A stretch of 64,000 nucleotides of DNA from Pseudomonadota bacterium (GTDB lineage: Bacteria > Myxococcota_A > UBA9042 > GCA-2863065): positions 65 to 64,064 of the forward strand of contig PKDL01000514.1 in NCBI GenBank assembly GCA_002863065.1, in the 5' to 3' direction. The notes under the pieces are model-generated. The model did not search any database. It had not been told where the DNA came from and saw nothing but the letters and a program-made list of their open reading frames with translations. The position numbers and the translations under genes were made by a program. Numbering within the stretch: position 1 is the stretch's first letter; every line of letters starts with the position of its first letter. Positions 5,246 through 19,489 of the stretch are shown piece by piece.

Positions 5246-5998
5246 TCAGCCTTCCGACTTAAGACGAGTGCGGAAACCGTAGATTTCACGAGCGATACGC
5301 TTGATACGCTGAGTGCTTGCTACTTTAGACACGCCATGCGCTCGAGGCCTCACGATCATCGGTCTAACCGTAACAGTGTACCCACGTCGTAGTGCACGGG
5401 CGATAAGCTCAAAAGAAAAAAAGAATGTGTCGCCGGGAATGGTGTCTAAGCCGATCTCTTCCACCGCTACTCGCCGCGGAAAAAGATAAATCCCCTCCAT
5501 CGTGAAGTTGATCCCGCAAGCCCATTGCATGGCTCTCCGGAAGCCAAAGCTCAATACTCGACGTTGTAATTCTCGCTGGTTTGAATGAAAGGTAGTGACG
5601 ATATCAGCTTCCTTCAACCCTGGAAGCAAGACCTCCAGCTCAGGCGTTGGATGCTGACCGTCACCCGCGATAATCGTAAAGTAGTCGGCTGTAGCTGCCG
5701 CAATACCGGTTTTCATGCCGGCACCCATGCCTCGGTTCGTACCATGCGTCAGCACTCGGACCCGATGGTCTGCTTCTGCAAAGCGTTGTGCAACTCTCAA
5801 TGTGCCGTCGCTCGATCCGTCATCAACCACCAAGAGCTCCCACTCTCGGACCCTGGCTGTTAGGAAATCGACAGATTCCTGCAACATCGCTGGGAGGTTT
5901 TCCTCCTCGTTGTAAGCCAAGACGATGACAGCCACAGAGGGACAATCGAGTATTTTCGACGGCCGCGACTTCCGATGCTTTGCGCTCAGGTCAACCAC
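5246..5998 (-). CDS. GT2 family glycosyltransferase (polyprenol-phosphate sugar transferase, ArnC/DPM1-like)
   Basis: VAVIVLAYNEEENL ... VVDDGSSDGT ... GMGAGM... motifs of GT-A fold family 2. Confidence 0.8.
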   Translation of the reverse strand: MVDLSAKHRKSRPSKILDCPSVAVIVLAYNEEENLPAMLQESVDFLTARVREWELLVVDDGSSDGTLRVAQRFAEADHRVRVLTHGTNRGMGAGMKTGIAAATADYFTIIAGDGQHPTPELEVLLPGLKEADIVTTFHSNQRELQRRVLSFGFRRAMQWACGINFTMEGIYLFPRRVAVEEIGLDTIPGDTFFFSFELIARALRRGYTVTVRPMIVRPRAHGVSKVASTQRIKRIAREIYGFRTRLKSEG

Positions 5999-6041
5999 CC
6001 TGCCTCCCTTCTGCTATCAATATCGGTGCACGCGCTCATCG

Positions 6042-7532
6042 CTAGGGCAGCACTAGCCGCCCCAATCCAGCATCGTTTACCAGCACAAGACTGGACGCTT
6101 CTACCACTGAAACCGCACGGGCGGTATTACCGCGCTGAAACCGTGACACAACATCCTCAAGATCCGTCTGCCGAGTCACCACATATCGATGTTTGCCCTC
6201 AGGATGAGTGATTGGACCGTCACCAATGGGGTGAACCTGGCCTACCATCTGATTCATAAGAATGGACTGTTGTATCGCAAGAAACCGTGGATCTGCCGCA
6301 AACATTTCGACGCGCTTACCTCCAGAGTAAAAAGTGAGTGCTGCGGTGGTGGTATTGAATGTCGCAGTCACATCCCCTTCCTTCGCATGCCGTGCCATTA
6401 GCTCGCCCAGTGCCTTCTGATCCGGCGCCAAATCAGCATCGATCCAAAGCGCCATACGCCCAGGCGACGCGGCAAAAATCACCACGACAAGCGAGCCGAT
6501 ACACCAGGACGCATATCGACGGCGCCACCAATCGCTCGGGACTGCTGCAGGAGCCATCAAAGCAAGTCCGATAATTAATGGGAATGCGTAGTGGGGGAGG
6601 CGTGTCGAGCTTATCACCATTGGCAAAAACGCAAAGACGGACCAAAGCCCCCCAACCCAGACCGCACGCGTGATTTTGCCAGTGCGATTCCGCACCCAAG
6701 CACTTCTAATCAATGCGACACATGCCCCAAACACCAACACTGCGTCTTGAAGTACGAGAACGAGCAGGTCGCGAAGAGATATCCCAGGAACTACTGGCCG
6801 TGTTGCTCGGTCGCCAACATGGTGACCAATATAGGCGGCCCAGAATGCAGTACCATGCCTGAGTGTCGCCAGGAGATGCCAAGGTGCCGCAACAAGTATT
6901 GCGACTGCCGCAGCTGTACCAACACCTCTGAGTGCGGTTCGCCAGTCCAATCCGTTTGCCAGAAATGCGACCAGCATGATGGAGAATATCAGTGGACCAG
7001 CTGCCACTCCCTTTGCCAGGATCGCCAGGCCAGCACCGACACCGGCGTGCTTCCAATGGCCCGATAATGTCATCTGCAAAGAGTAGAGACTACACGCGAC
7101 CAGTGGTAGATCAGTCATTAGTCGACGGGACATCATCACAAAATAAAAACTCGTCAGTAACAGCAAACAGCCTGCAACAGATGCGAGCGATGAGAGACCT
7201 AGTCGGCCGTAGATGCCGAAAAGACTCCAAATTGCCAGGGCAGCGAAACACGTAAGAGGCAGCCTCAATGCGGCTTCAGACCAACCCCCAATGCCTCCGG
7301 ATAGCGCCATCGACCAAATGAGCAACGGTGGCTTTTCGAACAGAACAGTTCCAGACCAACGATTATCTACCCAATCCCCGCTTACCCACATGCTACGCGC
7401 CATTTCAGCGTACAACGCGTCGTCTGAGTCGTAATGACTTCCGCTATCCATGCCGATAGCAAAAAAAACGAACGTGACCGCAGTCAGCAGAATGCCAATT
7501 CGTCGTTCATCTGAGTTGATAGGTGCATGCAC
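6042..7532 (-). CDS. GT-C fold membrane glycosyltransferase (ArnT/PMT family 39-like); start uncertain (ORF open to 7901, likely GTG near 7532 before first TM helix)
   Basis: Multi-pass membrane protein; conserved DDALYAEMARSMWVSGDWV loop-1 motif (DE-x-x-YAEIAREM in ArnT/PMT); adjacent to GT2 gene. Confidence 0.65.
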   Translation of the reverse strand: MHAPINSDERRIGILLTAVTFVFFAIGMDSGSHYDSDDALYAEMARSMWVSGDWVDNRWSGTVLFEKPPLLIWSMALSGGIGGWSEAALRLPLTCFAALAIWSLFGIYGRLGLSSLASVAGCLLLLTSFYFVMMSRRLMTDLPLVACSLYSLQMTLSGHWKHAGVGAGLAILAKGVAAGPLIFSIMLVAFLANGLDWRTALRGVGTAAAVAILVAAPWHLLATLRHGTAFWAAYIGHHVGDRATRPVVPGISLRDLLVLVLQDAVLVFGACVALIRSAWVRNRTGKITRAVWVGGLWSVFAFLPMVISSTRLPHYAFPLIIGLALMAPAAVPSDWWRRRYASWCIGSLVVVIFAASPGRMALWIDADLAPDQKALGELMARHAKEGDVTATFNTTTAALTFYSGGKRVEMFAADPRFLAIQQSILMNQMVGQVHPIGDGPITHPEGKHRYVVTRQTDLEDVVSRFQRGNTARAVSVVEASSLVLVNDAGLGRLVLP

Positions 7533-7831
7533 GGGCTGAAGTGTGAACGGCAGAGACCATTCCGGCAACTCCACACCGAAAACGCCGTGCGAAGCACTCA
7601 ACGAAACCGAAGCGGGGTGCACTCGTAGAACCGCTCGATGTGATACGCTGCACCTCGTTTTCAGAATAATATGGCCTCTGATTACGAACAAACGCTCGAT
7701 TTGGACATTGCGCCAATAGACCGTTCGGCGGCAAAATGCGGAGGTATCCGCGCGAGAACGTACCCATCGGGTAGTCACGGAGAAGGTGAGGTCTCCATGG
7801 TTGTGAACACCGATCAAGCACCGGAGAGTAG

Positions 7832-9367
7832 ATGCGACGCCGAGACTTTCTAAAACATGCAAGCGCGATGGGGCTAGCCGCTGGGTTGACCGGCAGACCA
7901 CAGACCGCGCGGGCAGCTACCTCAATCTGGGGCCAGTACCCTGACTTCGCACTTCCCGCCCTGCTGCCGGCAGAAAAACGAGCAAAAAATGTTCTCGATA
8001 TCTTTCTATATGGTGGGCTGTCTCCGTGGGAGACATTTTACGTCGTGCCCGAATACGGGACTCCCGATAATCCGACGAATCCAAACCAGCAGTGGTGGAC
8101 CTTCCAATCAGGCGTAGATAGCGTCGAAAATGTCTATAACGGATGCTTTGGGGACGCCAAGCCACCCATGCTTCAACCATTTGGGGTGGACTACAACGGA
8201 AAAGAGGTCAACCTCGGACCATTCAGTGAGCCGTTGCGATCACGCGCCGACATCATTTCCAGGCTACGGATGCACGTGGTTACCCACTCCCTGGAGCCGC
8301 ATGAAGCAGCCATACCGTATGCAATGAGTGGTTTCCGGTTGGGTCAGCCAAAACTCGCGGGACTTGGTGCGGCTATCCAGCATTATTATCAAGCGCAGGC
8401 TCCAGTAATTACCGCAGAGCCATATGCGTATGTGCTCTATTCGCCCGGCGACTTTCCGACCGACAACCTGCGAGCCGCAAGCTCCATCGGCCTTCATCCT
8501 GGTTCCGCTCGCCCACTGGCCATTCGGGTAGAGGCAAATACATCCTTTATTGACGCACTCCAGCGACAGACGGTGTCTAGCGTCCGCCCGCAGTACGACG
8601 CCCTAATAAATCACTACCGACAAAAATATAAAGAACGCCTGCTTTACCCAGGTGCGGTGGAACCAACCCGCTCGCAAACCATGGCGGACTACAATTTCTC
8701 GATAGATACGCTTCAGCAAACAGATGCGCTCGTGGACATCCTCGAACCAAGCTACTTCAGCAGTGTGGCAGGCAGTCAATGTGGTCAAAATAGCAACAAC
8801 AACTTCCCGCGTATGGGGCTACAGCTTGCGGCCCACCTCCTTACACGAGAAAACTCAAAAGCAAGATACGTAAATGTCGTGGACGGGGGACTCATCCCAG
8901 CCTCTGGTGGTGGCGGATACGATACGCATAGCAAGCATGTCCAAGACTCCGCTCGTAATCTGAAGAACCTGTGGACTGAGCTCATTGCAATCATCAACGA
9001 GCCCGGCGAAAACGATCCAAACAAACTCAACTTGGATGAGACGCTCATCTGTATCAACACCGAGTTCGGTCGGACTCCCTGGCCCCAAGGCAACGACGGA
9101 CGGAATCATCATCCGTACGCTTATGTCACCTGCATGTTCGGTGGCCCGGTGTCCAATGATTCACAAGGCATCGTCGGAGCCATCGGACCTGATGGATATG
9201 CCTCCGGTGCATTGCATCCAGCTGAAAGCCGCGCTGCCATTCTGTCGGCGCTGGGGATCTACCCATTCGCCCCAGAGTGCTATGCCGTAAGCGATGTCTA
9301 TGGAGCCGGTTCAGAGACAGACGCGGGAATCTGGCTCAATGAAATGGTACTTGGGGTGCAATCATGA
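7832..9367 (+). CDS. DUF1501 family protein (sulfatase-like fold), Tat-secreted
   Basis: Twin-arginine signal MRRRDFLKHASAMGLAAGL...ARA; GGGYDTHSKH (WDTH-type) motif; 4-nt overlap with downstream PSCyt/DUF1553 gene. Confidence 0.65.
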   Translation: MRRRDFLKHASAMGLAAGLTGRPQTARAATSIWGQYPDFALPALLPAEKRAKNVLDIFLYGGLSPWETFYVVPEYGTPDNPTNPNQQWWTFQSGVDSVENVYNGCFGDAKPPMLQPFGVDYNGKEVNLGPFSEPLRSRADIISRLRMHVVTHSLEPHEAAIPYAMSGFRLGQPKLAGLGAAIQHYYQAQAPVITAEPYAYVLYSPGDFPTDNLRAASSIGLHPGSARPLAIRVEANTSFIDALQRQTVSSVRPQYDALINHYRQKYKERLLYPGAVEPTRSQTMADYNFSIDTLQQTDALVDILEPSYFSSVAGSQCGQNSNNNFPRMGLQLAAHLLTRENSKARYVNVVDGGLIPASGGGGYDTHSKHVQDSARNLKNLWTELIAIINEPGENDPNKLNLDETLICINTEFGRTPWPQGNDGRNHHPYAYVTCMFGGPVSNDSQGIVGAIGPDGYASGALHPAESRAAILSALGIYPFAPECYAVSDVYGAGSETDAGIWLNEMVLGVQS

Positions 9368-11826
9368 CTCGGACGCCCTCCCACGCATTACTAACTTTGG
9401 CGGCGCTGTTTCTGGCCCTATCTGCATGTGATAGTGGCTCATCTACTACGGACCAGACAACCGATCCTACGGACCAAACAGACGCAACGGATGCCATTGA
9501 GGGACCAGATACTGCGGATGGTACGACGACCGATGACAGCACTGACGGCACCGATAGCGGCGACCAAGTAGATGCCACGGATGGAACCGACCAGACAGAC
9601 ACGAATGATACGGGGGATGCCGCAGACAGCCGCGATGCGAGCGACGCAACGGATGATGCATCGAATACCGACGCGACGGACGGTATCGACGCGGTTGATG
9701 CCATCGATGCAGTAGACGCAACCGACAGCGCCACCGGGTCCGATGCGGCGGACGCGGCGGACTACATCGTCTGTGATGCTGGTGATGAGGCGTGGGCAAA
9801 ACGTACCATTGAAGTCCTACTCGGACGAAAGCCGCGCGGCGTGCGAGAGATTAGAGCACTGGCTGATTTGGTATCGCAATCATCTCGCACCGACGTGGCC
9901 AAGGGAATGATGACAACCCCCGAATTCCGCCGACGCTGGGCCATTTGGCTCATGGATGAGGTCCGGGTGAATCGAGTGGGAGATAAAGCGCATGATGTCT
10001 GTTACGGGAGCTTCTATCTGGGTACCCAAGAAACCGGATTTCCAAATACTGAAATCGCCAAGTACATCCGTGACAATGCGCCAGCAGAGTCTAATTTTGG
10101 ATCAACATTCTCAATGCTCGATGTGCTTTTGTCGTCTATCGAATTAGACGATTTATCCCCGTTTTACATGAGCCACCTCTTTGCGATGATGATGAAACCC
10201 ATCACAGGCGCAAATGTAGATGCTGAAGCCATGGACATCACACGCCGACAAGACTTTGGTGAAAATTTCGAGGCGATATATCTGAATCGAAATGTCGTAT
10301 GTGCCGGCTGCCACAACAGCGAGTGGGGAACTACAGATAACGAGGATCCGGAAAAAGATCGGCATCATCCGACCCCGGGCTTGGTAGAAAAGGCGGTATA
10401 TGGCTTCTCGACGGGTCGACCTGAAATGGAAGTGTACAGCGCGTTCCGCAGGCTAGGTATCGTGAGCGACAGCGGTACCCGCCCGTGGGGCATCGTTGGA
10501 GACTGTGGTCGTGTATTAGACCAGCAGAACATCAGCGAAGACTTCGCAGACTACAGCACATACTTCGGCAGCGACCTCGGAAAGACCGCAAGTATTTGGG
10601 ATGTGGAATCATTACTACACAGTGGATTTGACTCTTTACGATCCAGCGGCATGCTGGCCATTGATCCCGACACGGGTGAGGTGCCGGCGGATGAAGCGTT
10701 CGCCTACATGGTGAGTATGCGGATCACGAATCAGGTGTGGCGCGAAGTCATGGGCTTCGGGTTAACACTCGTGCATTACTTCCCACGCAACGTCGAACAG
10801 AAAGACCTGCTGCTCGAACTCACGAATCATTTCGTGATGGAGCAGTGGTCCCTACGGACCTTGCTACTCGATATCGTCACGCACCCATCATACAACGAGC
10901 CGGCACCGATGTCGGGGTGCGGAGACGCGGGCCATGCATACATACTCCCGCCGATCTTCAATCCATGGACGACCGATTACGACAATGAACTCCAAGAGAA
11001 TAACTCCGGAGATGCAATGCATCGTCATGATGCGCGCGTCATGCTGAATATGCTGACTCAGGCGTTAAGCTGGGATGCAGCGCCACTCTTTCCCAATGGC
11101 AGCGAAGAAAACTTTCAAAAAGCAATCGGCGTCTTCGTGAAGGATGCCGAGCCGGGTTTCCGTGGCGTAGATTTCCAAGGTCTGCTCACCTGGGAAGCAC
11201 GCTACGGAGCATGTACTTCTGAAAATGCTGGAGATACCGGGGGCGGATTGACGAACAGCTGCGTGGGGAAATGCGGCGGAGAAGGCGACGAATGCTACTG
11301 CGATGATGGATGCCTGCAGTTTGGTGACTGCTGTCCAGACTTCGAAGCCGTGTGCCAACAAGGTAATCTGCCCGACCTTCCAGAAGGTGCGGATTGGATA
11401 GCCCAGCTACAAGTTGTAGCAAATGCACTGAATACATCGGATGAGCCTACAACCATCCGTGATTTGGTGGTCGCCATGAAAGACCGGTTGATCAATGAAC
11501 CGGACCTGGAGCCTGGAGAAGACCTCCTTTGCGCTAGCCTCTTTGGAGTCGAGTCACTGGACGCGACGATCAGCGACGTCCCCAATTGGCAAGAGCGTAT
11601 GCGATTCTATTGCGGTGTTTTGTTATCTACACCACAGTTCATGCTGACGGGCGTGGTGGGCGACGCGCAAAACACCTCACCTAAACTCACGGTTGGACCG
11701 GCGAACTACAGTAACTACTGCGAGACATGGTCCAAAATCATCTTCGATCCGACCGTATGGACTGTGTCGTGCTATGACGACAATGTGGTGGTTACCCCGT
11801 TTGCACCGCCACTGGGCGCACTGTAA
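9364..11826 (+). CDS. PSCyt/DUF1549-DUF1553-like lipoprotein with CxxCH motif, Asp/Thr-rich linker and C-terminal somatomedin-B-like Cys knot
   Basis: Lipobox LALSAC; D/T-rich low-complexity region (aa 25-125); heme-type motif VVCAGCHNSEW; canonical partner of DUF1501; C-x3-C-x6-C-x-C-x3-C-x5-CC-x-DF-x3-C at nt 11260-11355. Confidence 0.6.
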   Translation: MTRTPSHALLTLAALFLALSACDSGSSTTDQTTDPTDQTDATDAIEGPDTADGTTTDDSTDGTDSGDQVDATDGTDQTDTNDTGDAADSRDASDATDDASNTDATDGIDAVDAIDAVDATDSATGSDAADAADYIVCDAGDEAWAKRTIEVLLGRKPRGVREIRALADLVSQSSRTDVAKGMMTTPEFRRRWAIWLMDEVRVNRVGDKAHDVCYGSFYLGTQETGFPNTEIAKYIRDNAPAESNFGSTFSMLDVLLSSIELDDLSPFYMSHLFAMMMKPITGANVDAEAMDITRRQDFGENFEAIYLNRNVVCAGCHNSEWGTTDNEDPEKDRHHPTPGLVEKAVYGFSTGRPEMEVYSAFRRLGIVSDSGTRPWGIVGDCGRVLDQQNISEDFADYSTYFGSDLGKTASIWDVESLLHSGFDSLRSSGMLAIDPDTGEVPADEAFAYMVSMRITNQVWREVMGFGLTLVHYFPRNVEQKDLLLELTNHFVMEQWSLRTLLLDIVTHPSYNEPAPMSGCGDAGHAYILPPIFNPWTTDYDNELQENNSGDAMHRHDARVMLNMLTQALSWDAAPLFPNGSEENFQKAIGVFVKDAEPGFRGVDFQGLLTWEARYGACTSENAGDTGGGLTNSCVGKCGGEGDECYCDDGCLQFGDCCPDFEAVCQQGNLPDLPEGADWIAQLQVVANALNTSDEPTTIRDLVVAMKDRLINEPDLEPGEDLLCASLFGVESLDATISDVPNWQERMRFYCGVLLSTPQFMLTGVVGDAQNTSPKLTVGPANYSNYCETWSKIIFDPTVWTVSCYDDNVVVTPFAPPLGAL
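9430..9760 (+). repeat. In-frame degenerate codon repeats encoding Asp/Thr/Ala-rich (TDxTD, DA[IV]DA) linker in PSCyt/DUF1553 gene
   Basis: Repeated GACGC/GATGC/ACGGA units visible in sequence. Confidence 0.6.
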
Positions 11827-11865: not shown

Positions 11866-13446
11866 ATGCGAATAATCCGACATGTGTCTTTCCGAAGTAT
11901 GTTCCAGGCAGAACTTTCGATCGGAGTCGTAAAATACCTCGCCAACCTCGGACAGCGCGTTGCGCTAGTCCAGGCCGAACGCCAAATGTCCATGCTGGAT
12001 GCACATCTGGGTAAAGCTCCACATACCGTAGCGATATTTTCGGCTGCGCATGATGGATTACAACAGACAGACTACGAAGCCGCCCCGACAGATGCTGAGA
12101 CCTGGTCGCAATGGGCCACATCACACGATATCGATATTCTCTGGCTCAATACTGCACCTGGTGCGGCACTCAGTATACCGGATACTGACGTTAGTTTGGC
12201 GTTGGTAGGACCTTCAATTCAGGAAGCTGAGACTATCGCTGAATGCACTAAGCGCGGTACCGATATCTTAGCGATTTACCTGCCGGCCGACGACATTCCT
12301 CAGACAGAGTTGCAGCACATCACAGCCCTTCTGAGTCACCCCTTTCGGACCTCGCCAAAAACCATAACCGTCCGTTCCAAAGCAATGCCTGTGCTCACGG
12401 ATAACCTACGCTCAAATGAAAAAACGCTCAGCATTGATGAGACCTCGATACAAAAGCTCGCACTCTCTCTCATTGACTCCGACACGCTGACAGAGTCGGT
12501 ACGACCAGCGATAAAAGCGGCGCTGGCGGGTCTCCTAGACAACCCCGACGGCACGTACGCGAAGTTGGCCAGCCTGGCGGAGCTTTACCCCCATCCAGAA
12601 ACACTACTTGCAGTGATGAAATTCTATCGGCTCCAACCTCGGATAGAGCGTCTGCCGCTCGCAGATGCAATCCGTTACTGGCGCATGACTGGAGATGCAG
12701 CACACCCGGTCCTATCGGACATCCTGCAACATGCGCTAGACCATGCGCCACAATCGGTCCCTACGGATTTCGCTATGAGTGTTGCATCCGCTCAGTCGAC
12801 TTTAAATGACACCATCGCGTTAGCGGTCGCTAAACGACTCAACCCACAAAATCAAGTCGAAGCGGTAGCAGTGCTTGAACTGCTAGATCCCGTGGTCCTG
12901 CAGGGCCGAGCCACTGCCAATGACTTAGCCAGTTACCTTCCTTCTCTGGCCACAGTACGAGGGGCAGCAGCAGCTCATGAAACGGCGCGGGAGCAGGCAT
13001 CTCGCTTTCGCACCGTTCCAACCTTCCACATTGCCTGGGCGACAGCACTTCACAATACGGCTGATGACGACATCCTTCGAAACATGCTCGTAGATCCCCG
13101 ATACAACGGTGGGGTAGTGACTCAGAATGCACCGGAACTTGCTAAAGCGATAGCCAACCGATTGGCTCCAGCGGACAGGATGAAAGCAAACGCACTTGTG
13201 GATTATGAAGCGTTTCTGCAATGCATCCGAGACGGGCATACCTCAATACAGTCAGCCGACATCGTTGCGAATGCCGTGAACGAGCTACACCGTCTGAAAC
13301 GTCTCGATGCTGATCAGCAACTGGCATTCTCGCGCGCTTTAGAAGAAGCATCGAAACGCTGGGCAAAACGAAGCTACATGCAGCGTCTCTGGCAAAAGTT
13401 ACCCATAGAACTAGACCCGCTCGTTCCGCTACGACTTCGCAGCTAG
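11866..13446 (+). CDS. Hypothetical protein: degenerate ParA/MinD-like N-domain (no P-loop) fused to long alpha-helical domain; start uncertain
   Basis: N-terminal AELSIGVVKYLANLGQRVALVQAERQMSMLDAHLG resembles MinD/ParA segment after Walker A but GxxGxGK[ST] is absent; rest helical, no other recognisable motif. Confidence 0.4.
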   Translation: MRIIRHVSFRSMFQAELSIGVVKYLANLGQRVALVQAERQMSMLDAHLGKAPHTVAIFSAAHDGLQQTDYEAAPTDAETWSQWATSHDIDILWLNTAPGAALSIPDTDVSLALVGPSIQEAETIAECTKRGTDILAIYLPADDIPQTELQHITALLSHPFRTSPKTITVRSKAMPVLTDNLRSNEKTLSIDETSIQKLALSLIDSDTLTESVRPAIKAALAGLLDNPDGTYAKLASLAELYPHPETLLAVMKFYRLQPRIERLPLADAIRYWRMTGDAAHPVLSDILQHALDHAPQSVPTDFAMSVASAQSTLNDTIALAVAKRLNPQNQVEAVAVLELLDPVVLQGRATANDLASYLPSLATVRGAAAAHETAREQASRFRTVPTFHIAWATALHNTADDDILRNMLVDPRYNGGVVTQNAPELAKAIANRLAPADRMKANALVDYEAFLQCIRDGHTSIQSADIVANAVNELHRLKRLDADQQLAFSRALEEASKRWAKRSYMQRLWQKLPIELDPLVPLRLRS

Positions 13447-15358: not shown

Positions 15359-18300
15359 GTGGGTAGGAAATTCAATATCTATCGGCAGCTTGGATTCATT
15401 TGGCTTGCAGTGAGCTGCATTGCCTGTGAACCCAAGAGCACAGCGTTTGTCGCGCCGGAAAGTGTCGCTAACGACGTCGTATTATCGGAGGATATCAAGG
15501 CACCCAACGTGCGCATTCTCCCTGAGCGACCCACCAGCCGCGATGCACTCACTGCTCAGTTACTCTCTCCTGAAGCGGGAGCACAATATCACTTTCGTTG
15601 GATCGTTAATGGAGAGCTACTAGACGATCAAATCGACGAGACACTGCCAGGCGGAACCGTATCGCGGGGGCAATCCGTTGTACTTGAGGTGTCCGCTTCC
15701 AGAGACGGCAGGACCTCTCCCTGGGGAGGAGCCTCAGTGGTTATTGGTAATGCTGCCCCTGTGTGTTTACGCGCGTCGATACTTCCGAATCCCCCGACCA
15801 TTTTTGATTCGATTGAATGCCGTTGCGACGACCTGGATGACCCCGATGATGACCTGGTGGATACATTATGTTTATGGAGTGACCTTGAGCCTACTTTGAA
15901 TTCATGTAGCCGTCCGGCCCCCCATAATTGGCTGACAAATACCCTCCTTACCTGCGAACTCACAGCTATCGACTCTCGGCAAGATGCCGGAACGGTGATT
16001 GCTTCCTCGATGGTAGTAAATACACCACCGACCGGAGGACAGGTGGGGCTACAGCCGGCCCAAGTATTCGAGGATTCTCAAGTCCGTTGCCTGGCGAGCG
16101 GAGCCACTGACCCTGACGGAGTATCTTGGAATTACGATATATTGGTCGACGGGCTGTTGGCCGCCACGGGTCCTGAGGCCGAAATCAACGGTAATAGCTT
16201 CGATAAAGGACAGAGCATCCAATGTATTGCCACCGCGACCGACGGAATAGCCAAAGGACAACCCATTGCATCTGAGACTGTAGTAGTCGGTGACTCGCCA
16301 GCAAGTGTTGTCGCCATACAAGCCACGCCACCCGTCGTAACTCGCCTTCAGACCCCAAGTTGCGACATCACGATGACCGATCCAGACCTGAGTGATATCC
16401 CAGAATCCGTTACGACATGGTGGCGTAATGGTGTGGTTCTCGACTGGGAGCCGGCCAGTCCACTCGGTAATACCGTAGTTCCCGGCGATACGATCTTTTG
16501 CAGTGCAACCCCACTGGACTATCCCGGTGAAAGTACGCCGAAATTATCGAATAACCTTTTAGTCAAGAATCTCGGACCTGACCTGGCCGGGGTCGATATT
16601 CTCCCTGAAGCGCCCACCATCTCAGATGTACTCACGTGTGTACCGTATGCGCACGATCCCGAAGGGGACCCCATGGTATTTAGCTATAGCTGGTCGGTTG
16701 ACGGCGCCCAAATTACGGATGCCGGCGCGACGCTCAGCGGTATCACCGCGGGGTCCTTAGTGCAATGCGAAGTGCAAGTCAGCGATGCGTATGGTGATAC
16801 CGCGTCAATGGCATCGTCCACCGTCGCCGTAGTGCACTCTCCTCCATACATCGAGGGGATTGCTATGCTGCCAACAACTCCAGGACCGTGCGACTCTGTG
16901 AGCTGCATTGTCAACGATGTCAGCGACCCCGATGGAACGAGTAATCTCACTATAGCGACCACCCTTCTTCTCAACGGCGTACCCACTTCAGAGACGACCT
17001 TTGCGGTAGGTGCAGAGCTACAATGTATTGCGACAATCACCGACGAGACGGGACTCAATGTCACGGCTTCATCCACCATCAGCCAGGTTACAAACACCCC
17101 ACCAACACTGTCGGCAGTCACGATTTCACCCGCGCAACCGACGGCAGGTGATACCCTGACTTGTGCACCGGTCGATGCAATCGATCCCGATTGCAACACT
17201 CCACCCGCAGCTATCATCGAATGGGTGAGTGAAGCAGGGGTGACTTCTGGTGGCGCATTAGAAACCACAGCCGAACAAGCAGGCCAACAAGTCACGTGTT
17301 CCTTGACGGTATCAGACGGCTACGACTCGTCGACTGCGGTGCAGTCTACGGTCACGCTGGCGCCCCCACCAAGCCTTCCCACGGTGACCATAACCACCGA
17401 TATCAACGGGTCGGTTATATGCTCGCCGGAATCACCGCTAAATTCCCCGTCGTGGTTTTGGCGCGTAGGAAACAATGACGAATTCCAAGGGCCCTGGTTT
17501 TTGCCACCATCGACGTATCAGGACTGCGATCGTGTCACTTGTCGTGCAGAAAGTAATGGCCTGGCGACCAATATCGCTGAAGCCCTAATACCACTGGGGC
17601 CTGACTGCGATGACGGCTCACTCTGTACCCTAGATACCTGCTCACCTGCGGGCGGCTGTAGCCATACGGCATTGTCCGGCGCCTGTGATGATGGCGATAA
17701 CTGTACCGAGAATGATGCATGCCAGGACGCGATATGCAGCGGGTCCCCAACCGACTGTGATGATGACAACCCGTGCACCACGGAGCTTTGCGTGTCTGGC
17801 TTCGGATGCAATTACGGATATGCCAATGGGCCTTGTGATGATGGCGATGCCTGCACTCTCGATGATTATTGCATCGAGGGCAGCTGCGGCTTCGCCTCAA
17901 CCGCCATATGCGATGATGGAGATGTATGTACTGATGACGCCTGCGACTCCGAATTAGGCTGCATCGGTTGGCCCAATGTGTCTGTGTGCGATGATGGGAA
18001 TTCCTGCACACATATGGACGTATGTGCTGATGGTGACTGTCAAGGTAAACCGCTCACCGAATCAATCACTTGCCCCGATCCCGCGAGTCCCCTCGGGTAC
18101 TGCAGCAATGGGGTGTGCGTGAGCAATATCCCCCCACAGATCCCAATCCTCACGATATCACCCAGCATAGCGCAGGCAGGCAGCCCATTGATCTGCTCCG
18201 CAGTCGCTACTGATCCGGACAGCTGGCCAGCGCCAATGCAGTACACATTCCGTTGGACGCGAGAGCCAGCGGGGATTCAAATTGCTGATGGTCCAGAACT

Positions 18301-19489
18301 GCCAGGCGATCTACTGTCGAAAGGTGATGTGCTTGCGTGCCGAGCCACGGCATCAGACGGATTATTATCGTCGTTAGAAGCAATTATATTGGCCAAGGTC
18401 GTCAATGCCCCACCAGTTGTCGAATCGGTGTCCTTGACGGCAAATGATACGACGGTCACGTGCAATAGTGAGACCTATGATCCTGATACCGAAGACAGCC
18501 TAAATCTTAGTTATGCATGGTTTGCCGATGGGCTTTCTCTACCGCTGGATAGCCACACGGTCTCATCACATTCATTACCTGCCTGTAGCAATGTTACCTG
18601 CGAAGTTACCGTCGATGATGGACATGCGAGCAATGTGAAAACGGCATCACCTCTTGACGTCGATAACCCGAAAGCCTGTGGTCCAGAACCATGCTTAGTG
18701 TGGTCGTGCTCTGCCAACGGATGTACTTCCGTGCCTGGCGTCGGACCGTGCGATGACGGTAACCCATGCACTGGTTCGGGTATCTGCATCAATTCTGTCT
18801 GCGTTGCTGAGCCACTACCCGACGACGCGTGCAATGACAGCAATGTATGCACAACAGACAGTTGTAATGCAGACGTCGGCTGCGTTCATACCCCCGTATC
18901 GTTCGGAGTCGACTGCAATGCAGATGATTCCGTTTGTACAGAGGCGGACTTCTGCAATGCGATGGGCACATGCATTCCAGGCCCCCCGATCAGCTGTGAT
19001 GATGGCATCGCGTGCACATCCGACGCATGTGACCCCAACGATGGGTGCATCGCTACTTTGCCGGGGGAGTCTATCGGCTTCGCCATCGATTTTGGAATGA
19101 CCGAAGAATTTCTTCCATTCGCAGATGAGGCCACCACCGAGCTGGTTCAAGGTCCCCAGGGTGGAGAACACATCGAGTTTTCTTTGCAATACCTCTTGCC
19201 ATCGTCCTTCAATTGGCAGCCGCTGCGATCTAGAGTCATTGTCACCCTGGAGGGACCATGTTGCGGCGGTCTTCCTATCGGGGGGATGTACTTACCAAAC
19301 GTCCTGAGCGACTTAGAAGGCCCCAATGTATACGTGAGTGGCATGGTGATAGGTATCTTTGATCAGGAAATAACGACGGGCTCGACCGTATGCGCAACGG
19401 TCGAAGTGACAGTTTATGACGAACCAGGAACCACCGCAGTCAACACCAGCACTGCGAGGCATATGTTTACTATTATCGACACCGAGTAA
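15359..19489 (+). CDS. Giant secreted lipoprotein/adhesin-like protein: multiple Ig/cadherin-like beta domains plus two blocks of slime-mold-type (Dicty_CTDC-like) Cys repeats
   Basis: Lipobox WLAVSCIAC; repeated ~90-aa beta-rich units (ATxPxxxT..CxxxxDPD); CDDGNxCTxDxCxxxxGC repeated >12 times at nt ~17600-18120 and ~18670-19060. Confidence 0.7.
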   Translation: MGRKFNIYRQLGFIWLAVSCIACEPKSTAFVAPESVANDVVLSEDIKAPNVRILPERPTSRDALTAQLLSPEAGAQYHFRWIVNGELLDDQIDETLPGGTVSRGQSVVLEVSASRDGRTSPWGGASVVIGNAAPVCLRASILPNPPTIFDSIECRCDDLDDPDDDLVDTLCLWSDLEPTLNSCSRPAPHNWLTNTLLTCELTAIDSRQDAGTVIASSMVVNTPPTGGQVGLQPAQVFEDSQVRCLASGATDPDGVSWNYDILVDGLLAATGPEAEINGNSFDKGQSIQCIATATDGIAKGQPIASETVVVGDSPASVVAIQATPPVVTRLQTPSCDITMTDPDLSDIPESVTTWWRNGVVLDWEPASPLGNTVVPGDTIFCSATPLDYPGESTPKLSNNLLVKNLGPDLAGVDILPEAPTISDVLTCVPYAHDPEGDPMVFSYSWSVDGAQITDAGATLSGITAGSLVQCEVQVSDAYGDTASMASSTVAVVHSPPYIEGIAMLPTTPGPCDSVSCIVNDVSDPDGTSNLTIATTLLLNGVPTSETTFAVGAELQCIATITDETGLNVTASSTISQVTNTPPTLSAVTISPAQPTAGDTLTCAPVDAIDPDCNTPPAAIIEWVSEAGVTSGGALETTAEQAGQQVTCSLTVSDGYDSSTAVQSTVTLAPPPSLPTVTITTDINGSVICSPESPLNSPSWFWRVGNNDEFQGPWFLPPSTYQDCDRVTCRAESNGLATNIAEALIPLGPDCDDGSLCTLDTCSPAGGCSHTALSGACDDGDNCTENDACQDAICSGSPTDCDDDNPCTTELCVSGFGCNYGYANGPCDDGDACTLDDYCIEGSCGFASTAICDDGDVCTDDACDSELGCIGWPNVSVCDDGNSCTHMDVCADGDCQGKPLTESITCPDPASPLGYCSNGVCVSNIPPQIPILTISPSIAQAGSPLICSAVATDPDSWPAPMQYTFRWTREPAGIQIADGPELPGDLLSKGDVLACRATASDGLLSSLEAIILAKVVNAPPVVESVSLTANDTTVTCNSETYDPDTEDSLNLSYAWFADGLSLPLDSHTVSSHSLPACSNVTCEVTVDDGHASNVKTASPLDVDNPKACGPEPCLVWSCSANGCTSVPGVGPCDDGNPCTGSGICINSVCVAEPLPDDACNDSNVCTTDSCNADVGCVHTPVSFGVDCNADDSVCTEADFCNAMGTCIPGPPISCDDGIACTSDACDPNDGCIATLPGESIGFAIDFGMTEEFLPFADEATTELVQGPQGGEHIEFSLQYLLPSSFNWQPLRSRVIVTLEGPCCGGLPIGGMYLPNVLSDLEGPNVYVSGMVIGIFDQEITTGSTVCATVEVTVYDEPGTTAVNTSTARHMFTIIDTE

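Follow-up and report, generated by a model that had tools for sequence, protein, structure and literature searches.

A DUF1501 gene paired with a divergent PSCyt2/PSD1-related lipoprotein gene in a Myxococcota genome

The overlapping gene pair and its two products

We analyzed a 64-kb stretch of DNA from a Myxococcota genome (contig PKDL01000514.1; the whole stretch is hereafter called the window), in which a DUF1501 gene is followed on the same strand by the gene of a large lipoprotein, its partner. The DUF1501 gene, open reading frame 1 (ORF1), lies at 7832 to 9367 on the plus strand and encodes a 511-residue protein that carries a twin-arginine translocation (Tat) signal, adopts an alkaline phosphatase superfamily fold in its structure model, and is the putative catalytic subunit. 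The partner gene (ORF2; 9364 to 11826, plus strand) encodes an 820-residue lipoprotein of a Myxococcota-centered family that appears to be remotely related to PSCyt2/PSD1 proteins. The two genes meet in an ATGA junction (9364 to 9367, plus strand), in which, as read directly from the sequence, the ORF2 start codon overlaps the DUF1501 stop codon, an arrangement of translational coupling. An earlier reading of the letters alone (the sequence-only reading) had proposed two ORFs with a 4-nucleotide (nt) overlap at these positions, and both genes were placed exactly there. Of the corresponding junctions in 56 related loci, 35 permit a 4-nt NTGA overlap and 4 a 1-nt overlap; the gaps in the others do not exceed 57 nt. 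Scans of the window detected no terminator-like site between ORF1 and ORF2, and promoter and terminator signals over the window were at or below shuffled expectation; an Rfam search of the whole window returned no RNA family. The local guanine-plus-cytosine (GC) content at the pair is 0.53 to 0.555, like that of the remaining window, and neither a second copy of the module nor a canonical PSCyt/PSD1 gene is found in the window. Altogether, the two genes probably form an operon with translational coupling that encodes a two-subunit module of the cell envelope; we place high confidence in the identity and family assignment of the pair and regard its mechanistic interpretation as tentative.

ORF1 matched the Pfam DUF1501 model (PF07394) with 66.2 bits (cutoff, 27), with residues 51 to 476 aligned to profile positions 1 to 363 of 390. 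Its Tat signal peptide (residues 1 to 28, MRRRDFLK ... ARA; 7832 to 7915, plus strand) contains the near-consensus RRRDFLK and scored 24.5 bits against the NCBIfam TAT signal model TIGR01409 (cutoff, 16.7), with an E-value of 0.022 against Pfam TAT_signal; the MxRRxFL consensus is kept throughout the DUF1501 subfamily to which ORF1 belongs. The sequence-only reading had taken ORF1 for a Tat-secreted DUF1501 protein, an assignment borne out by the DUF1501 and TIGR01409 models alike. In the structure model of ORF1, in which the signal peptide segment has a low predicted local distance difference test (pLDDT) score, the best structural matches are NPP/ENPP phosphodiesterases. The closest folds, those of NPP/ENPP and of the PafA/PhoK alkaline phosphatases, have only 10 to 13% identity to ORF1, the likeness being one of fold. 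A PDB sequence search with the ORF1 family profile found no relatives, i.e., no sequence-level relation of ORF1 to any PDB chain, and the C/SxPxR motif is absent from ORF1. The alkaline phosphatase superfamily fold and the conserved polar motifs of DUF1501 are both present in ORF1, and its DUF1501 motifs recur in a canonical protein with a Pfam score of 523 bits. The polar motifs common to all DUF1501 proteins, clustered in ORF1 around E67, D364, H366, E411, and H426, would form a putative metal center.

ORF2 begins with a lipoprotein signal peptide (9364 to 9429, plus strand; MTRTPSHALLTLAALFLALSAC), the lipobox of which, LSAC, conforms to the bacterial consensus [LVI][ASTVI][GAS]C as L-S-A-C22 and places the lipidated Cys at residue 22. 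This Cys22 is kept in at least 90% of alignment A1, and a simple lipobox regular expression matched 135 of 200 full-length members of the partner family. Both subunits have diverged too far for routine annotation, with ORF2 receiving no Pfam family call and ORF1 scoring only 66 bits versus 523 for the canonical DUF1501 protein.

The partner family and its relation to PSCyt2/PSD1 proteins

A search for ORF2 homologs returned about 95 proteins with 30 to 55% identity, most without Pfam annotation, the named ones coming from Myxococcota metagenome-assembled genomes (MAGs), Polyangium, and Kofleriaceae. When 1.84 billion cluster representatives were searched exhaustively with a profile, 1022 proteins were found at an E-value of ≤1e-3 and 516 at ≤1e-30, indicating that the partner family is compact and stands apart from the very large canonical one; the Myxococcota branch amounts to some 500 to 1,000 largely unannotated sequence clusters. 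A locus scan, in which one genome per species was searched with a single peptide pattern, returned the 56 loci mentioned above. Nearly all belong to Myxococcota (Polyangium, Nannocystis, Byssovorax, Sorangium, and many MAGs), a few distant ones to Eremiobacterota, Rokubacteria, Nitrospina, Burkholderiales, and Cellvibrionaceae, and none of the 56 is planctomycetal. Genera of the class Myxococcia such as Myxococcus do not appear in the scan output, an absence that a single peptide pattern does not prove. ORF1 likewise clusters with entries of 'Myxococcota bacterium' MAGs, and wherever a locus includes enough upstream DNA, with a single exception, the partner gene is directly preceded on its strand by a DUF1501 gene of the ORF1 subfamily. 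The pair occurs twice, each copy on its own contig, in Polyangium fumosum DSM 14668 (loci L037 and L041) and in the Myxococcota MAG TF_7 (L045 and L054).

A module of DUF1501 and PSCyt/PSD1 proteins has been described, without a function (Kamneva et al. 2012, PMC3542564; He et al. 2017, PMC5615132). Its canonical forms are most abundant in Planctomycetes-Verrucomicrobia-Chlamydiae (PVC) bacteria, for which a role in electron transport was proposed (Kamneva et al. 2012, PMC3542564), and their partner proteins frequently carry carbohydrate-binding modules (He et al. 2017, PMC5615132). The canonical DUF1501 and PSCyt1/PSCyt2/PSD1 pairs occur in Planctomycetota, Verrucomicrobiota, Bacteroidota, and others, and few gene modules have expanded as strongly in Planctomycetes and Verrucomicrobia, where these pairs are repeated dozens of times. 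Like the window pair, they consist of a Tat-signal DUF1501 gene tightly linked to the gene of a large exported helical partner, and both kinds of partner share a PSCyt2-type region with CxxCH at its end and the PSD1-type motif 'VNRxW..FG...WS.K.L...IV.S..Y'; no function has been assigned to either pair. Unlike the canonical partners, ORF2 is a lipoprotein that carries an acidic tether, joined in a subclade of its family by a Somatomedin-B (SMB) insert, and it contains neither PSCyt1 nor a carbohydrate-binding module: the PSCyt1 cytochrome domain (PF07635), present in all four canonical partners examined, had no match in ORF2 or in any of 50 family members. The gene order is also reversed, with DUF1501 preceding the partner in the ORF1/ORF2 family and following it in four canonical pairs, namely, those of Chondrinema (L006), Singulisphaera (two pairs, L063), and Catenovulum (L064), whereas Haliscomenobacter (L065) shows a variant order. 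Finally, the window holds a single copy, whereas canonical systems reach dozens per genome.

In ORF2, a PSCyt2 (DUF1549)-like helical region spans residues 137 to 325 (9772 to 10338, plus strand), with a phycobilisome-linker-like subdomain at about residues 148 to 191, and a PSD1 (DUF1553)-like N-terminal motif spans residues 451 to 514 (10714 to 10905, plus strand; ...ITNQVWREVMG...LLLELTNHFV..WSLRTLLLDIVTHPSYN). Evidence for this relation comes from the family as a whole. Among 50 aligned members, PSCyt2 was matched in 25 and PSD1, weakly, in 10; P0082, P0085, and P0090 exceeded the PSCyt2 cutoff (34.2, 33.2, and 32.9 bits, respectively), and one member, P0021, exceeded that of PSD1 (29.1 bits). 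For short-loop members, the match to PSCyt2 begins at position 20 and extends to positions 189 to 204 of 209, ending just past the CxxCH, which falls on profile positions ~181 to 185, the same columns as the canonical CVQCH. The canonical partner on a Chondrinema plasmid, with matches to PSCyt1 (58 bits), PSCyt2 (283 bits), CBM_6, and PSD1 (325 bits), has its second CxxCH (CVQCHSHPYDP) on these same PSCyt2 columns. When the partner family was compared by hhalign with a diverse canonical profile, built from Bacteroidota partners together with those of Singulisphaera (Planctomycetota), Catenovulum (Gammaproteobacteria), and Haliscomenobacter (Saprospiria), the PSCyt2 segment aligned with a probability of 75.3% (E-value, 2.5e-5) over 154 columns, from 'LLGRxP' to the CxxCH, with CxxCH placed on CxxCH. 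A second, colinear segment corresponds to the PSD1 N-terminal motif (22%; E-value, 1e-3), the probability of which ranged from 14 to 22% across runs at E-values of ~1e-3. As judged from these profile comparisons, ORF2 is probably a very divergent, Myxococcota-centered relative of the PSCyt2/PSD1 partners of DUF1501. The sequence-only reading had spoken of a PSCyt/DUF1549/DUF1553-like pair and had suggested a search with the corresponding models, naming a lack of DUF1501/DUF1553 matches as the refuting outcome; the remote kinship and the homologous CxxCH hold, and the DUF1501 model was passed, but ORF2 itself fails that check, falling below the DUF1549 and DUF1553 cutoffs and giving nothing with PSCyt1.

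Several observations weigh against our interpretation. ORF2 scored 20.7 bits against PSCyt2/DUF1549 (PF07583; cutoff, 29.8), aligning only with positions 21 to 89 of 209, and 14.8 bits against PSD1/DUF1553 (PF07587; cutoff, 28.5), with residues 454 to 511 on positions 21 to 82 of 244; the C-terminal two-thirds of PSD1 have no counterpart in ORF2; and hhalign against a low-diversity canonical profile of Bacteroidota partners only gave a probability of 14%. In a Rokubacteria MAG (L055, 3950 to 5407), alone among the related loci, a partner homolog, matched partially from query residue 169, has no DUF1501 gene upstream, and the literature searched held no functional experiment on any DUF1501, PSCyt2/PSD1, or DUF1800 protein. 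One might argue that ORF2 is unrelated to PSCyt2/PSD1 and joins a generic 'LLGRxP..E' helical motif, of the kind found in phycobilisome linkers and DUF4214-type proteins, to a convergent CxxCH. The short PSCyt2 match of ORF2 indeed covers just the part of the profile that also matches ApcE linkers, the first hhalign run reached just those 14%, and forced or permissive runs (low mact) gave global alignments that were meaningless and were rejected; a PDB search with the partner family profile matched only the phycobilisome-linker motif. However, the shorter-loop members cover nearly the whole PSCyt2 profile (20 to 204) and pass its cutoff, the CxxCH falls on the canonical columns, the diverse profile aligns up to that motif and again at a colinear PSD1 motif, and the DUF1501 neighbor is obligatory as it is for canonical partners, all of which make an unrelated origin quite unlikely.

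The sequence-only reading had further called the pair typical of Planctomycetes and raised the possibility of its horizontal import. Recent acquisition from Planctomycetes or Verrucomicrobia might draw on the abundance of canonical modules in PVC bacteria and on the few distant homologs scattered in Nitrospina, Burkholderiales, Cellvibrionaceae, and Eremiobacterota. Yet the 56 loci include none from Planctomycetes, and Myxococcota supply all of the closest relatives, a distribution that, together with the unremarkable GC content, does not support a recent transfer from Planctomycetes. Both proteins are also far from the canonical families, with ORF2 below the Pfam cutoffs and a canonical DUF1501 protein scoring just 28.9 bits on the hidden Markov model of the ORF1 subfamily, indicating that the two subunits diverged together; the gene order is reversed; and the glycosyltransferase genes upstream of the pair are syntenic in related MAGs. 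Import of this kind is thus highly improbable, and the pair is a well-defined, largely unannotated variant of a known, functionally uncharacterized module, belonging to a separate Myxococcota-centered family rather than brought in from planctomycetes.

A further likeness exists to the DUF1800 and DUF1501 operons of Proteobacteria, found beside bacterial chitin synthases (PMC5122149), which similarly combine a twin-arginine DUF1501 protein with a helical partner of unknown function. Similarity of DUF1800 to ApcE has been noted (PMC12981691), and phycobilisome-linker-like segments are present in both DUF1800 and the ORF2-type partner. One member of the ORF2 family gave a faint DUF1800 match over its PSD1-like motif; the Pfam DUF1800 model had no match to ORF2.

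The CxxCH site and the putative two-subunit module

The CxxCH of ORF2, CAGCH (C313, C316, and H317; residues 313 to 317), lies at 10300 to 10314 on the plus strand, where the sequence-only reading had seen it, and is homologous to the PSCyt2 CxxCH. It is kept in 234 of 234 partner family members and is invariant in alignments A1 and A2; among the other window ORFs of at least 150 residues, CxxCH occurs in only one, which is antisense and spurious. The CxxCH of ORF2 is therefore not a chance motif. Exact C-x-x-C-H spacing is the hallmark of heme c attachment, and, as is the rule for c-type cytochromes, the motif sits in a protein exported unfolded by the Sec/lipoprotein route; it is a candidate heme c or metal site. 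Around it, ORF2 reads CAGCHNSEWGTT (family consensus, CHNSEFSVT), and the family motif CHNSE[FW]S[VI]T differs from the extended motif CH-[DST]-H-[KP]-x-D-P, which all four canonical partners examined possess and ORF2 lacks. Alignments A1 and A2 contain no other His or Met kept at 90% or more in the partner family, and no recognizable cytochrome fold or conserved second axial ligand was found in ORF2 or its family.

What the site holds can be read in different ways. If the partner were a true c-type cytochrome, with heme attached to C313 and C316, H317 as axial ligand, and electron transfer or redox chemistry shared with the DUF1501 protein, the invariance of the motif in all 234 members, the unfolded Sec-exported lipoprotein precursor, a form to which heme could be attached in the periplasm, the proximity of the homologous canonical motif to a real cytochrome c domain, PSCyt1, and the electron transport role that Kamneva et al. 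(2012) proposed for the module in PVC bacteria would all find an explanation. The family nevertheless shows neither a heme fold nor a conserved distal ligand, and it lacks PSCyt1, which leaves a true cytochrome doubtful. The missing heme fold and distal ligand favor a non-heme site, in which the Cys and His residues would bind Zn, Cu, or Fe, or the Cys pair would form a redox or structural disulfide next to the His, with the partner serving as a noncatalytic anchoring, substrate-binding, or chaperone-like subunit. In keeping with this, eight other conserved Cys residues can pair among themselves and leave C313-C316 as a pair of its own, the partner has a lipid anchor and a tether, and canonical partners often carry carbohydrate-binding modules such as CBM_6 (He et al. 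2017), which fits substrate recognition. Against it stands the C-x-x-C-H spacing, held over the very large evolutionary distance from canonical PSCyt2 to the ORF2 family, and we judge a non-heme site to be a serious possibility that falls just short of probable. The boldest interpretation, which we consider unlikely, is that the motif, lying in a confidently predicted fold without a solved relative, could constitute a new heme c or metal center that works directly with an alkaline phosphatase-fold subunit, i.e., a type of redox-assisted or cofactor-dependent esterase not yet described, with the myxobacterial family representing the minimal core of PSCyt/DUF1501 modules. If so, that core would comprise no PSCyt1, no carbohydrate-binding modules, and one copy per locus, and the function of the module would become accessible through cultured Nannocystis and Polyangium strains, which carry the pair.

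For the two-subunit module itself, the following scheme is tentatively proposed. The DUF1501 subunit, the putative catalytic part with an alkaline phosphatase-type fold, is predicted to be exported folded via the Tat pathway, and the partner to be exported unfolded via Sec and lipidated at Cys22; the latter, a mainly helical protein, would be kept off the membrane by its acidic linker of ~110 residues. The two proteins may then assemble 1:1 in the periplasm, where the lipoprotein would anchor and position the enzyme and supply the Cys/Cys/His site, a possible seat of covalent heme c or a metal ion; such a complex might act on a substrate of the phospho- or sulfo-ester type.

Taken alone, the locus is of modest weight, since no new mechanism emerges from it; its main value lies in offering a minimal and genetically more tractable version of the PSCyt/DUF1501 system. 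In 2012 the module was singled out as an attractive system of unknown role; no later functional study was found. The separate Myxococcota branch has shed every accessory domain and kept the strict pairing and the PSCyt2 CxxCH, which points to an essential core of an alkaline phosphatase-fold subunit, a helical partner, and a Cys/Cys/His site. Cultured hosts with a single or double copy are available, among them Nannocystis exedens DSM 71 and Polyangium fumosum DSM 14668, and knockouts and biochemistry would be much easier there than in planctomycetes, with their dozens of paralogs.

Linker, Somatomedin-B insert, and neighboring genes

Between the lipidated Cys and the PSCyt2-like region of ORF2 lies a low-complexity linker rich in Asp, Thr, and Ala (residues 23 to 135; 9430 to 9768, plus strand), presumably a flexible tether, which is acidic in composition (36 Asp, 24 Thr, and 22 Ala among the 128 residues from 23 to 150). 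Only a two-copy 9-mer was found as tandem DNA repeat beneath it. Long acidic N-terminal linkers are present in 43 of 200 partner family members, differing in sequence and length from locus to locus. An SMB domain with 8 Cys (residues 631 to 666; 11254 to 11361, plus strand) occupies a loop of the C-terminal region and matched Pfam Somatomedin_B (PF01033) with 35.0 bits (cutoff, 23.1; E-value, 1.7e-8); the region has lower pLDDT in the ORF2 model. SMB-like inserts of 50 to 80 residues with at least 8 Cys were found in 67 of 233 family members and are absent (0 Cys) in 154. The sequence-only reading was right that the linker and the Cys knot are real, but neither is unique to this locus. Given the CxxCH in every member, the motif belongs to the core of the family, whereas the linker and the SMB domain are accessories of the subclade that holds the window pair.

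Eukaryotic ENPP1-3 and autotaxin have the architecture SMB-SMB-PDE, in which PDE stands for phosphodiesterase. A DUF1501 protein with an NPP-like fold and an SMB domain on ORF2 present the same domain combination split over two proteins, the SMB domain residing here on the partner, not on the phosphatase-fold ORF1; as the insert is found in only ~29% of the family, the combination may be a coincidence. At locus L004, the gene following the pair also gives a weak SMB match, and a Dicty_CTDC/TSP_3 repeat protein is encoded near the pair; in the window, a 1376-residue protein with Dictyostelium-type Cys-rich repeats (Dicty_CTDC) is encoded at 15359 to 19489 on the plus strand. Eukaryote-like Cys-rich extracellular modules (SMB and CTDC) seem to be common in this lineage.

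Upstream and divergent from the pair, on the minus strand (region 5246 to 7901), are genes for a family 2 glycosyltransferase (GT2; 5246 to 5998) and a PMT_2-family membrane glycosyltransferase (6042 to ~7900), an arrangement kept in the related marine-type MAG loci L002/L003, L007, L008, and L014. As listed, the PMT_2 ORF extends over the start of DUF1501, and translation of PMT_2 therefore probably begins further downstream. Glycosylation of the Thr-rich linker by PMT_2 and GT2 was considered and rejected: the genes are syntenic only in the closest MAGs and do not track with Thr/Ser-rich linkers, since Nannocystis linkers have 26 to 37% Thr plus Ser without a PMT neighbor and the L008 linker has 4% with one.

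Downstream, an ORF of 526 residues (11866 to 13446, plus strand) starts 40 nt after the pair. It has no Pfam match, no homolog in any of the more than 60 related loci, and no similarity to the third gene of Polyangium, and it was rejected as part of the module; it is an orphan gene, perhaps co-transcribed with the pair. With no conserved gene following it, the pair itself makes up the functional unit. On a Haliscomenobacter plasmid (L065), a SUMF1/EgtB/PvdO-family gene, like that of the formylglycine-generating enzyme, lies at 2316 to 2984 near a canonical cytochrome c-domain/DUF1501/DUF1553 cluster, a neighbor that might point to maturation of a sulfatase-like kind in certain canonical systems.

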